Assembly (NCBI RefSeq): GCF_000091665.1
Contig: NC_000909.1
Location: 212,871 to 244,870, forward strand
DNA length: 32,000 bases
Direction: 5' to 3'
Source of the DNA: Methanocaldococcus jannaschii DSM 2661
GTDB taxonomy: Archaea; AGJL01; Methanococci; Methanococcales; Methanocaldococcaceae
Below are positions 29,732 through 30,904 of this stretch, one piece after another. How positions within the stretch are numbered: position 1 is the first letter of the stretch; each line of letters opens with the position of its first letter. Under the pieces are notes generated by a model that did no database searches, had not been told where the DNA came from, and saw nothing but the letters and a program-made list of their open reading frames with translations. Both the position numbers and the translations under genes were made by a program.

Positions 29732-29812
29732 ACATAGATTGGACATTAATTGGGGCTGAAAGCCCCAACTTAATGGACGTGGGGTATCCCAATAGGGGGT
29801 TTCCCCCTATGG
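29732..29812 (+). repeat. GC-rich two-hairpin element, copy A (immediately 3' of the comE stop)
   Basis: Hairpin 1 spans 29744-29775, with core TTGGGGCT-GAA-AGCCCCAA. An 18-nt core TGGGGTATCCCAATAGGG at 29780-29797 is identical to copy B. Hairpin 2 spans 29789-29812: CC-A-ATAGGGGG-TTT-CCCCCTAT-GG. Confidence 0.75.
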
Positions 29813-29869
29813 AGATATAGATTTATGGAAGCGATAAAAAGGAGCCAAAAATATCATTCATTAAAATAA
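29813..29869 (+). pseudogene. Displaced in-frame relic of the comE 3' end
   Basis: It reads RYRFMEAIKRSQKYHSLK then stop, against the live C-terminus KYRFMEAIKRS then stop. A 25-nt exact repeat occurs at 29703-29727 and 29820-29844. The offset is 117 nt, the same frame as comE. Confidence 0.7.
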
Positions 29870-29890
29870 ATAAATATTTAAAGTGAGAGT

Positions 29891-30826
29891 ATGATTCCAG
29901 AAGAAATTTATAAAATTTTAAGAAAGCAGAGGTATCAAATAGACGGCCACACAGCCGTTAAGTTGTGTGGATGGGTTAGAAAAAAGATGTTAGAGGATAA
30001 AAATTGCTATAAATCAAAATTCTATGGTATTGAAACACACAGATGTATTCAATGCACACCATCAGTTATTTGGTGTCAGCAAAATTGTATATTCTGCTGG
30101 AGAGTTTTACCAAGGGATATAGGTATAGATATAAGCCAAATTAAAGAACCAAAATGGGAAGAGCCAGAGGTTGTATATGAGAAAATTTTAGCCATGCATA
30201 AAAGAATAATTATGGGTTATGCTGGAGTGTTAGATAGAGTTGGAGAGAAGAAATTTAAAGAGGCTTTAGAGCCAAAGCATGTGGCAATATCTTTATCAGG
30301 AGAGCCAACACTTTATCCATACTTAGATGAGTTAATAAAGATATTCCATAAGAATGGATTTACAACATTTGTTGTTTCAAATGGAATCTTAACTGATGTT
30401 ATTGAAAAAATAGAGCCAACTCAACTGTATATCTCATTAGATGCCTATGATTTGGACAGTTATAGAAGAATATGTGGGGGGAAGAAAGAGTATTGGGAAA
30501 GTATCTTAAATACCTTAGACATTTTAAAAGAGAAGAAGAGAACTTGTATAAGAACTACTTTAATTAGGGGCTATAATGATGATATCTTAAAGTTTGTAGA
30601 GCTCTATGAAAGAGCTGATGTCCATTTCATTGAGTTAAAGTCATATATGCACGTTGGTTATTCTCAAAAAAGATTAAAGAAAGAGGACATGCTACAACAT
30701 GATGAGATATTAAAATTAGCTAAGATGTTAGATGAAAACAGCTCATACAAATTAATTGATGACAGTGAAGATAGTAGAGTGGCGTTATTGCAAAATGAAA
30801 ATAGGAAAATCAACCCGAAACTTTAA
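29891..30826 (+). CDS. taw1: tRNA wyosine-derivative biosynthesis radical-SAM enzyme Taw1 (TYW1 homolog)
   Basis: 311 aa. It has the radical-SAM cluster motif CQQNCIFC, upstream auxiliary-cluster cysteines, and the SLSGEPTLYP motif. Confidence 0.88.
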   Translation: MIPEEIYKILRKQRYQIDGHTAVKLCGWVRKKMLEDKNCYKSKFYGIETHRCIQCTPSVIWCQQNCIFCWRVLPRDIGIDISQIKEPKWEEPEVVYEKILAMHKRIIMGYAGVLDRVGEKKFKEALEPKHVAISLSGEPTLYPYLDELIKIFHKNGFTTFVVSNGILTDVIEKIEPTQLYISLDAYDLDSYRRICGGKKEYWESILNTLDILKEKKRTCIRTTLIRGYNDDILKFVELYERADVHFIELKSYMHVGYSQKRLKKEDMLQHDEILKLAKMLDENSSYKLIDDSEDSRVALLQNENRKINPKL

Positions 30827-30904
30827 TAAAGTTTCATCAAAGCTAACATCTCTGCCAAAGGCAGAGGTGTAAATGGGGTATCCCAATAGGGCGAAGCCCT
30901 ATGG
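30827..30904 (+). repeat. GC-rich two-hairpin element, copy B (immediately 3' of the taw1 stop)
   Basis: Hairpin 1 spans 30846-30870, with core CTCTGCC-AAA-GGCAGAG. The 18-nt core TGGGGTATCCCAATAGGG is at 30874-30891. Hairpin 2 spans 30883-30904: CC-A-ATAGGGC-GAA-GCCCTAT-GG. Confidence 0.75.

Follow-up and report, generated by a model that had tools for sequence, protein, structure and literature searches.

How did two hairpin-rich elements come to lie at the 3' ends of two adjacent genes of Methanocaldococcus jannaschii DSM 2661, each followed by a second copy of the gene end that precedes it? The genes (a comE-like gene and TYW1) and the elements, called here A and B, are located in a 32,000-nt stretch of contig NC_000909.1 (assembly GCF_000091665.1, positions 212,871 to 244,870 of the forward strand). 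We call this whole stretch the window and number positions from its first letter; all features described below are on its plus strand. The original prediction, made from the letters alone, placed A and B in one family with covarying stems and listed as possible origins a miniature non-autonomous integrative or homing element, a stability or terminator cassette of the 3' untranslated region (UTR) spread by recombination, and a processed small RNA. The answer that we favour, and consider reasonably probable, is that A and B are mosaic hairpin repeats specific to Methanocaldococcus, most likely the MJRE repeats, which an enzyme inserted with duplication of the gene end and whose alleles were exchanged later.

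Elements A and B at the ends of comE and TYW1

The 18-mer TGGGGTATCCCAATAGGG shared by the two elements had exactly two occurrences, at 29780 and 30874, while none was expected from shuffled sequences even with three mismatches. It begins 49 nt past the stop codon of comE (29729-29731) and 48 nt past that of TYW1 (30824-30826), and the sequence CCCTATGG closes both copies, at 29812 and 30904. These features had been described correctly in the original prediction, and the four hairpins it described are all present.

Element A was delimited by sequence and folding at 29734-29812; the covariance model introduced below matched it at 29738-29812 (26.9 bits, E = 4e-5). It has the 5' motif ATAGATT, a hairpin module that we call type II, with a perfect stem at 29750-29768 that folding extends to about 29744-29775, and a terminal module, M2, at 29782-29812 with a hairpin at 29792-29810 inside. 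Element B, delimited by folding at about 30817-30904, was matched by the model at 30840-30904 (47.4 bits, E = 1e-10). Its start had been put at 30827; the true start lies further 5', at about 30817, and brings in a third hairpin, GAAACTTTAATAAAGTTTC (hairpin 0, 30817-30835), which gives TYW1 its codon CTT and the stop codon TAA, the latter located in the hairpin loop. A type III hairpin (30846-30870) and the M2 module (30876-30904, with a hairpin at 30886-30902 inside) follow. The two elements are thus 79-88 nt long, with 2-4 hairpins. Apart from these, the only GC-rich perfect hairpins in the AT-rich window were in one spacer of a CRISPR array and in one other repeat. Compared with shuffled sequences, folding gave z-scores of -5.1 and -5.6 for the two elements as RNA and -5.9 and -8.9 as DNA, with equal folding strength on either strand.

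The gene upstream of element A is an open reading frame (ORF) at 29165-29731, comE-like, for a sulfopyruvate decarboxylase beta subunit with the TPP_enzyme_C domain (Pfam PF02775, E = 4e-21). The TYW1 (Taw1) gene, coding for the radical SAM 4-demethylwyosine synthase, occupies 29891-30826, and its protein is identical to M. jannaschii AAB98244.1. Both gene ends are repeated downstream of the element. The direct repeats at 29699-29736 and 29816-29853 (DR1-A and DR2-A) are 89% identical, with an alignment score of 56 compared to 25-30 in shuffles; those at 30788-30824 and 30905-30941 are 78% identical, with a score of 34 compared to 22-23. The start-to-start distance is 117 nt in both pairs, exactly as predicted. 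The repeated stretches measured about 38 nt and 32-37 nt, instead of the predicted 33 and 44 nt.

DR1-A, the functional gene end, consists of the last 10 codons of comE, the stop codon and 5 nt more; it has the same sequence as the single-copy comE end of M. fervens. DR2-A is a displaced second comE end, in which the stop codon is changed to CAA and Arg is encoded by AGA, a codon shared with strains 28A and MAG77. Since DR2-A sits between element A and the TYW1 start (29891), TYW1 retains native upstream sequence beside it. On the TYW1 side, the left target copy (DR1-B, 30788-30819, delimited by the repeat alignment at spacing 117 and by haplotype comparison) holds the TYW1 codons as far as the insertion point, and DR2-B (30905-30949) is the displaced original TYW1 end, reading L * N E N R K I N P K I F E stop. 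The earlier view that the conserved part of the elements encodes no peptide was supported. That the relic or the element might be translated was ruled out as well, with several stops in the comE frame and no usable ORF.

We compared the orthologous locus in six relatives, located via their TYW1 homologues. In five of them both sites are empty: the metagenome contig L023 (with TYW1 96% identical), M. fervens, FS406-22, 28A, and a metagenome-assembled genome. The comE-TYW1 gap is 4-46 nt in these five, and TYW1 continues straight into the next intergenic region. In M. bathoardescens site B is empty too, which makes six relatives altogether, and site A holds a composite element that is larger than A but shares its right-hand junction. 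Elements A and B are therefore true insertions.

Neither insertion destroyed the gene. In every relative whose comE gene is complete the protein has 187-189 aa, and here it has 188 aa; therefore it is not truncated, and element A, inserted 5 nt past the stop codon, left it unaltered. TYW1 has 311 aa here compared to 313-314 aa in most close relatives; its C-terminus reads ...NPKL, whereas that of close relatives reads ...NPKIFE or ...NPKIFEE and that of 28A ...NPKIFN. The TYW1 end of the relatives is what the downstream relic reads, so element B entered four codons before the original stop codon and now provides the final codon and the stop. Among other M. jannaschii-type contigs with identical TYW1 we found no variation at A or B.

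Several further observations can be added. The composite at site A of M. bathoardescens (L025, 2770-2948) is about 180 nt long. It combines a type I hairpin with an M2-like module and a type III hairpin, both inverted, one further hairpin, and M2; the right junction agrees with that of M. jannaschii and the interior does not. In M. fervens a family member (26 bits with the covariance model) lies between radB and comA (L024, 904-938), where the window has just a 4-nt gene overlap (27731-27734), a further difference in presence and absence between the two species. Directly 3' of TYW1, FS406-22 and the L023 lineage have a VapB/PIN toxin-antitoxin pair (L023 1476-2038; L075 2474-3333), while M. 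jannaschii has element B and a CfbE-like gene instead; this junction is thus a variable spot. In short public assemblies with identical TYW1 (L070-L074), many contigs built from short reads begin about 115-150 nt before the gene and end about 79 nt after it. Such contig ends fall inside elements A and B, which is consistent with assembly breakage at a multi-copy repeat.

A mosaic repeat family and its flanking duplications

A scan of species-representative genomes and metagenomes with the pattern GGGTATCCCAATAGG-N(3-15)-CCTATGG produced 59 family loci, 20 in genomes and 39 in metagenomes, so the motif does occur beyond the two loci from which it was described. The titles of all 20 genome loci name Methanocaldococcus or Methanocaldococcaceae, and the metagenome contigs carry no organism names; as far as the 20 named loci tell, the family is confined to Methanocaldococcus. 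A near-identical pattern, one G shorter at the 5' end, had no match in viral contigs, and BLAST found none in plasmids and phages. A covariance model gave 88 matches in the 301 kb of loci and, within the window, only A and B. The prediction that the two belong to one family was supported.

Over 48 distinct contexts we observed a constant 3' module M2 of 29-31 nt, GGGTATCCC-A-ATAGGG...CCCTAT-GG, to which 5' hairpin modules of at least five kinds are joined. The commonest of these is AAGAGG-CATTGCC-GAGCGAAGCGA-GGCAATG-CATCC. The type II module is present in A and otherwise mostly at the ends of CRISPR arrays, and type III is present in B; each has relatives of its own. Elements are about 55-95 nt long, and longer when composite, with inverted and mosaic arrangements at L001, L003, L011, L013, L025, L054, and L058.

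This modular structure changes the meaning of one part of the covariation that had been claimed. Because the 5' modules of A and B are two different ones, the difference between their first hairpins is module swapping and not compensatory evolution of a single stem. Within a module type, on the other hand, structural selection was borne out. The covariance model was built from nine type I sequences, with the inner M2 stem simplified by hand in three rows, and was used for detection only; the pairing statistics were derived from its 26 best real matches. In these matches 99.1% of stem cells were paired, and both-sided changes occurred in 12 of 19 pairs, a result reached by none of 500 shuffles; controls with slid positions paired at only 27-46%. 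Wobble pairs made up 8 of 469 cells. The outer M2 stem was invariant, partly since the search pattern held it fixed. A first MAFFT alignment of M2 variants, with gap placement inconsistent with the stem, was set aside. Paired hairpins are also kept at orthologous sites of diverged lineages (e.g., L019 and L029). The stems are thus shown to be under structural constraint.

The loops are mostly of the form C-GNA-G (GAA, GGA, GTA, and GCA), which is the hyperstable DNA mini-hairpin motif d(GCGAAGC). The match favours recognition of the elements as single-stranded DNA. At the left end, an origin of the filler as a 5' flank transduced from other loci found no support: the filler recurs only at orthologous sites, except for a short ATAGATT-like motif, which is probably the true 5' terminus.

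Long flanking repeats accompany the element in about 30 of the 48 distinct contexts. They are 24-67 nt long and spaced 85-232 nt apart; one locus, L060, has a perfect 55-nt pair. The second repeat copy begins 0-6 nt after CCCTATGG, which makes the right end of the element precise, and the left junction, with 0-30 nt of filler, is ragged. At 17 of 17 gene-end sites the insertion point lies between -18 and +10 nt around the stop codon, and at least 20 different genes carry repeats of their own. In L018 the ORF continues into the element.

The original prediction had stressed the constancy of the 117-nt unit. The equality of A and B does not extend to the family, where start-to-start periods were 85, 102, 104, 111, 117 (three times), 119, 121, 123, 127, 128, 130, 138, and 147 nt, rising to 160-232 nt in composite elements. 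Only eight of 17 simple copies had a period divisible by three, and element length (54-95 nt) showed no compensating relation to repeat length. A constant 117-nt or in-frame unit is ruled out by this spread, and the equality and in-frame status of A and B are most readily taken as a chance result in a distribution with its mode at 117-123 nt. On the other hand, with lengths of 24-67 nt the repeats do not fit a simple target duplication that is fixed and short, as had been noted for A and B.

Type II modules at CRISPR arrays were observed as follows. In relatives, the module is located at the trailer end of the array, inside the last repeat, in the order array, GTTAAAATCAGACC, variant half-repeat TCTTGGAGGTTAAAAC, element (75 to >200 nt), CCCTATGG, AAATCAGACCGTTTCGGTATGGAAAT. 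Such ends were seen in L002 (1496-1567), L009, L015 (3356-3440), L042 (1074-1249), L045, L048, L054 (1021-1205), and L058 (3782-3965). An origin of the elements from a CRISPR leader was rejected, as such a module is missing from the leader of the array in the window.

Second alleles and the origin of the insertions

The displaced gene ends might be thought of as decaying relics. At 15 independent gene-end sites, however, differences between the repeat copies fell on codon positions 1, 2, and 3 in numbers of 13:3:56; 50 codons were synonymous and 16 non-synonymous. A relic decaying neutrally downstream, modelled as a mixture of one coding and one neutral copy, was rejected (p = 4e-8). The third-position share was 78%, compared to 76-88% for real pairs of TYW1 orthologues; each repeat pair therefore holds two functional alleles.

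The comE-TYW1 region gives examples. DR2-B is the functional TYW1 end of 28A save for a change of CAA to TAA, one synonymous TTA/TTG difference and a different last codon, and DR1-B has the M. bathoardescens-like synonymous haplotype AAA ATC AAC. The comE body of M. bathoardescens is nearest to FS406-22 over most of its length. The final 27 nt (DR1), by contrast, resemble M. jannaschii and M. fervens at 96% and FS406-22 at only 78%; the DR2 of this species is the FS406-like allele. Recombination has made a mosaic of the entire region, with a switch of nearest relative every 60-200 nt. In three metagenome loci (L033, L060, and L063) the flanks are near-identical and the differences within the repeats are patchy, one pair being fully homogenised; here gene conversion between repeats is seen. 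The allele-like repeats are best explained by short-tract recombination between lineages. We also observed that in three displaced ends a sense codon has become a stop: window B at 30908-30910 (CAA to TAA), L056 (CAG to TAG), and L029 (GAG to TAG). The converted codon is the second of the relic in window B and L056 and a later one in L029.

In the scenario that we favour, the primary insertion would be made by an enzyme supplied from elsewhere in the genome, whose probable target of recognition is the single-stranded or cruciform DNA of the very stable hairpins. The element would be joined to two target nicks several helical turns apart, and fill-in or repair synthesis would then duplicate the gene end. 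Such duplication leaves the upstream gene whole and the downstream gene with its native sequence in front of it. Later, filled alleles would pass between lineages by homologous recombination over short tracts, a step suggested by the haplotypes described above, with one crossover on the left, just 5' of the repeat, and another on the right, near the beginning of the second copy. Thus, the donor gene end would arrive with the element and the recipient's own end would remain downstream; gene conversion between the two repeats would edit filled alleles as well. Such recombination needs a donor that is already duplicated, and a separate primary duplicating event is therefore still required. Selection may also shape which insertions survive: a promoter or ribosome-binding site is often inside the preceding gene, so only duplicating insertions leave both neighbours working. 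Two explanations in the original prediction, the miniature non-autonomous element and the cassette spread by recombination, each account for part of the data.

A number of points weigh against this scenario. Recombination alone leaves the origin of the first duplication unexplained, and no transposase, integrase or autonomous partner was found in or near the loci examined; the ORFs between inward-facing copies (L042 and L015) are housekeeping genes, coding for a radical-SAM enzyme, PheRS, and SecD. A perfect repeat together with an empty site in the same strain, as would mark a primary insertion, was not observed, and the perfect pair of L060 is explained equally well by gene conversion. Terminal inverted repeats amount at most to ATAG...CTAT. 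Because both strands fold equally well, constraint at the DNA level is indistinguishable from constraint at the RNA level; in addition, the element has the orientation of the upstream gene in 17 of the 23 gene pairs that are in tandem, a mild bias that makes an RNA role possible. Finally, the probable identity with the MJRE1-3 repeats is a match of descriptions and not of consensus sequences.

The orientation bias and the stable hairpins would suit host-beneficial RNA modules, i.e., 3'-UTR stabilisers, terminators or protein-binding hairpins selected in transcripts at gene ends and spread mainly by recombination. Insertion points clustered within 18 nt of stop codons, pairing kept in lineages as diverged as L019 and L029, and the TYW1 stop codon placed in a hairpin loop of element B all agree with such a role. 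Yet no oligo-T tract follows copy A or B; Rfam at the gathering threshold matched only tRNAs and CRISPR repeats in the window, and at E up to 10 gave only chance-level matches in 29600-31000. Copies also occur reversed, in inverted composites and inside CRISPR arrays, wobble pairs are rare, and close relatives do without elements at the same genes. Together with the equal folding of both strands, this makes RNA modules an unlikely explanation, and the processed small RNA proposed initially found no support, with no Rfam match and no preference of folding for one strand. About as improbable, in our estimate, is that the mobile unit is the gene end and the element together, a cassette whose excised circle or fragment enters the same gene in another lineage or another copy of the chromosome by Campbell-type recombination and displaces the resident end downstream; this corresponds to the integrative or homing element of the original prediction. 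It agrees with what the repeats hold: most sites have different functional alleles in DR1 and DR2, the DR1 of M. bathoardescens is a short foreign patch beside the element while its DR2 is native, and the junction of element and DR2 is precise, as expected of a circle junction. The common right junction of M. jannaschii and M. bathoardescens at site A, with different element contents, and a second, decayed element after DR2 in L017, resembling a tandem unit, fit as well. However, import of a filled allele by double crossover gives the same pattern if the donor already had repeats, so that a cassette is not needed. Besides, insertion into a new gene would be impossible, yet the repeats belong to many different genes; double-stranded circles of 85-130 bp are physically unfavourable, and no circle junction was observed. 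Integron attC cores (RYYYAAC ... GTTRRRY) were not found at the element ends on reading the sequence, and the neighbours are syntenic housekeeping genes.

The third candidate concerns the enzyme. A Cas1-type integrase, from the CRISPR adaptation machinery or a casposase relative, might have inserted the elements, A and B then being off-target 'super-spacers'. Integrases of this type naturally duplicate tens of target base pairs, the shortest duplications seen here (24-32 nt) are near the 30-nt repeat length, and the window itself contains a CRISPR array. The type II module was found in at least eight arrays of relatives, within the last CRISPR repeat and between the repeat halves. We nevertheless regard this explanation as highly improbable: duplication lengths of 24-67 nt are not ruler-like, the window's own array has no type II unit, and the elements have no sequence similarity to the CRISPR repeat or leader. 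The array-terminal unit, moreover, always occurs with the same variant half-repeat, for which descent from one ancestral array end is simpler. Returning to the insertion-and-exchange scenario, we propose only tentatively, as a rather doubtful combination, that a mechanism new for archaeal miniature elements copies 24-67 bp of the target, that filled alleles spread by very short tracts, and that the inserting enzyme is possibly related to adaptation.

Relation to known repeats and significance

The family had not been recognised in the original prediction; it has probably been described already, as MJRE, a match made by description only. M. jannaschii reportedly has 141 copies of MJRE1-3, about 100 nt long, some reaching into genes. 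The likeness to A and B lies in the same organism and in hairpin-forming palindromes of about 100 nt, mainly extragenic, with many dispersed copies. Some copies of MJRE enter coding regions without destroying the gene, as B does in TYW1 and as is the case in the L018 ORF. The MJRE abstract is not known to mention long flanking duplications, swappable 5' modules with a shared 3' module or allele-like repeats. The paper on these palindromic repeats, by Suyama, Lathe, and Bork (FEBS Lett 2005), is cited in PMC2229807 and PMC2996958, and only citations of the 2005 paper turned up in the literature on MJRE or on target duplications in Methanocaldococcus.

Repetitive extragenic palindromic (REP) sequences and bacterial interspersed mosaic elements (BIME) are similar to the family in being imperfect palindromes, short and GC-rich, whose stem foot bears a conserved tetranucleotide (in the family ATAG, invariant in M2), in forming mosaics in both orientations, in clustering after gene ends and in compensatory changes that keep pairing. 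However, REPs, whose partners are the RAYT (TnpA-REP) transposases, have no target duplication, their foot is GTAG or CGTC instead of ATAG, and their hosts are bacteria and not archaea. A RAYT-like gene did not turn up here, though none was sought across whole genomes. Miniature inverted-repeat transposable elements (MITEs), such as the Correia/NEMIS and Sulfolobus SM elements, are likewise small, non-coding and multi-copy, with empty sites in relatives, flanking target duplications and presumed mobilisation by an enzyme encoded elsewhere. They differ in having clear terminal inverted repeats matching a partner insertion sequence (IS) and a short fixed duplication, compared to a 4-nt symmetry and 24-67 nt here. 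Since REPs make no target duplication and that of MITEs is short and fixed, the family fails a defining test of each.

Insertion sequences of the IS1634 and IS1549 type produce direct repeats that are exceptionally long and vary from tens to hundreds of bp. Transposition can thus yield long variable target duplications like those of the family; these are, however, autonomous bacterial IS with a DDE transposase, and neither a related gene nor matching termini were seen here. The Rickettsia palindromic elements (RPE) are alike in lying in or at the ends of housekeeping genes, where they alter the C-terminus or insert codons and the gene survives. Unlike in the family, their sequence is translated in frame into the protein, and a long duplication of the gene end at the flanks is absent. 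Palindrome-associated transposable elements (PATE) derived from IS200/IS605 were rejected: there is no conserved sequence before the left end, and duplications are present, contrary to PATE insertion 3' of a fixed tetra- or pentanucleotide.

Two other repeats of the window are worth recording. The CRISPR array at 23694-25314 has 24 repeats, and at 24245-24750 seven consecutive 67-nt array units are 99% identical, i.e., one spacer is repeated seven times; this spacer is itself a hairpin, AGGGAACCCTAAAAAGGTTCCCT. At 4836-4950 there is an intergenic palindromic repeat of about 105 nt, unrelated to A and B, with outer arms GGTGTCTTTCAAAA and TTTTGAAAGACACC and a central hairpin GCCTTCCTTTGGAAGGC. 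Partial relatives were found in L034, L019, and L027, and this repeat is possibly a member of another MJRE group.

The stop-codon-centred long duplications and the allele-like displaced gene ends appear to go beyond existing knowledge. To our knowledge, no transposase class in archaea is recognised to make long, variable target duplications centred on stop codons. The loop motif points to recognition of single-stranded DNA at 85 °C, and, on the doubtful reading given above, the link to the last CRISPR repeat may mean a relation of the inserting enzyme to the adaptation machinery. There are consequences for annotation as well: element B alters the C-terminus of TYW1 (MJ0257), a structurally studied enzyme, and elements of this kind appear to break short-read assemblies. 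If the scenario of insertion and exchange is true, the duplication would preserve both neighbours in a genome with almost no intergenic space, and each insertion would be a readable scar of gene flow between lineages. The allele-like relics themselves make up, site by site, a direct record of short-tract recombination among hyperthermophilic methanogens.

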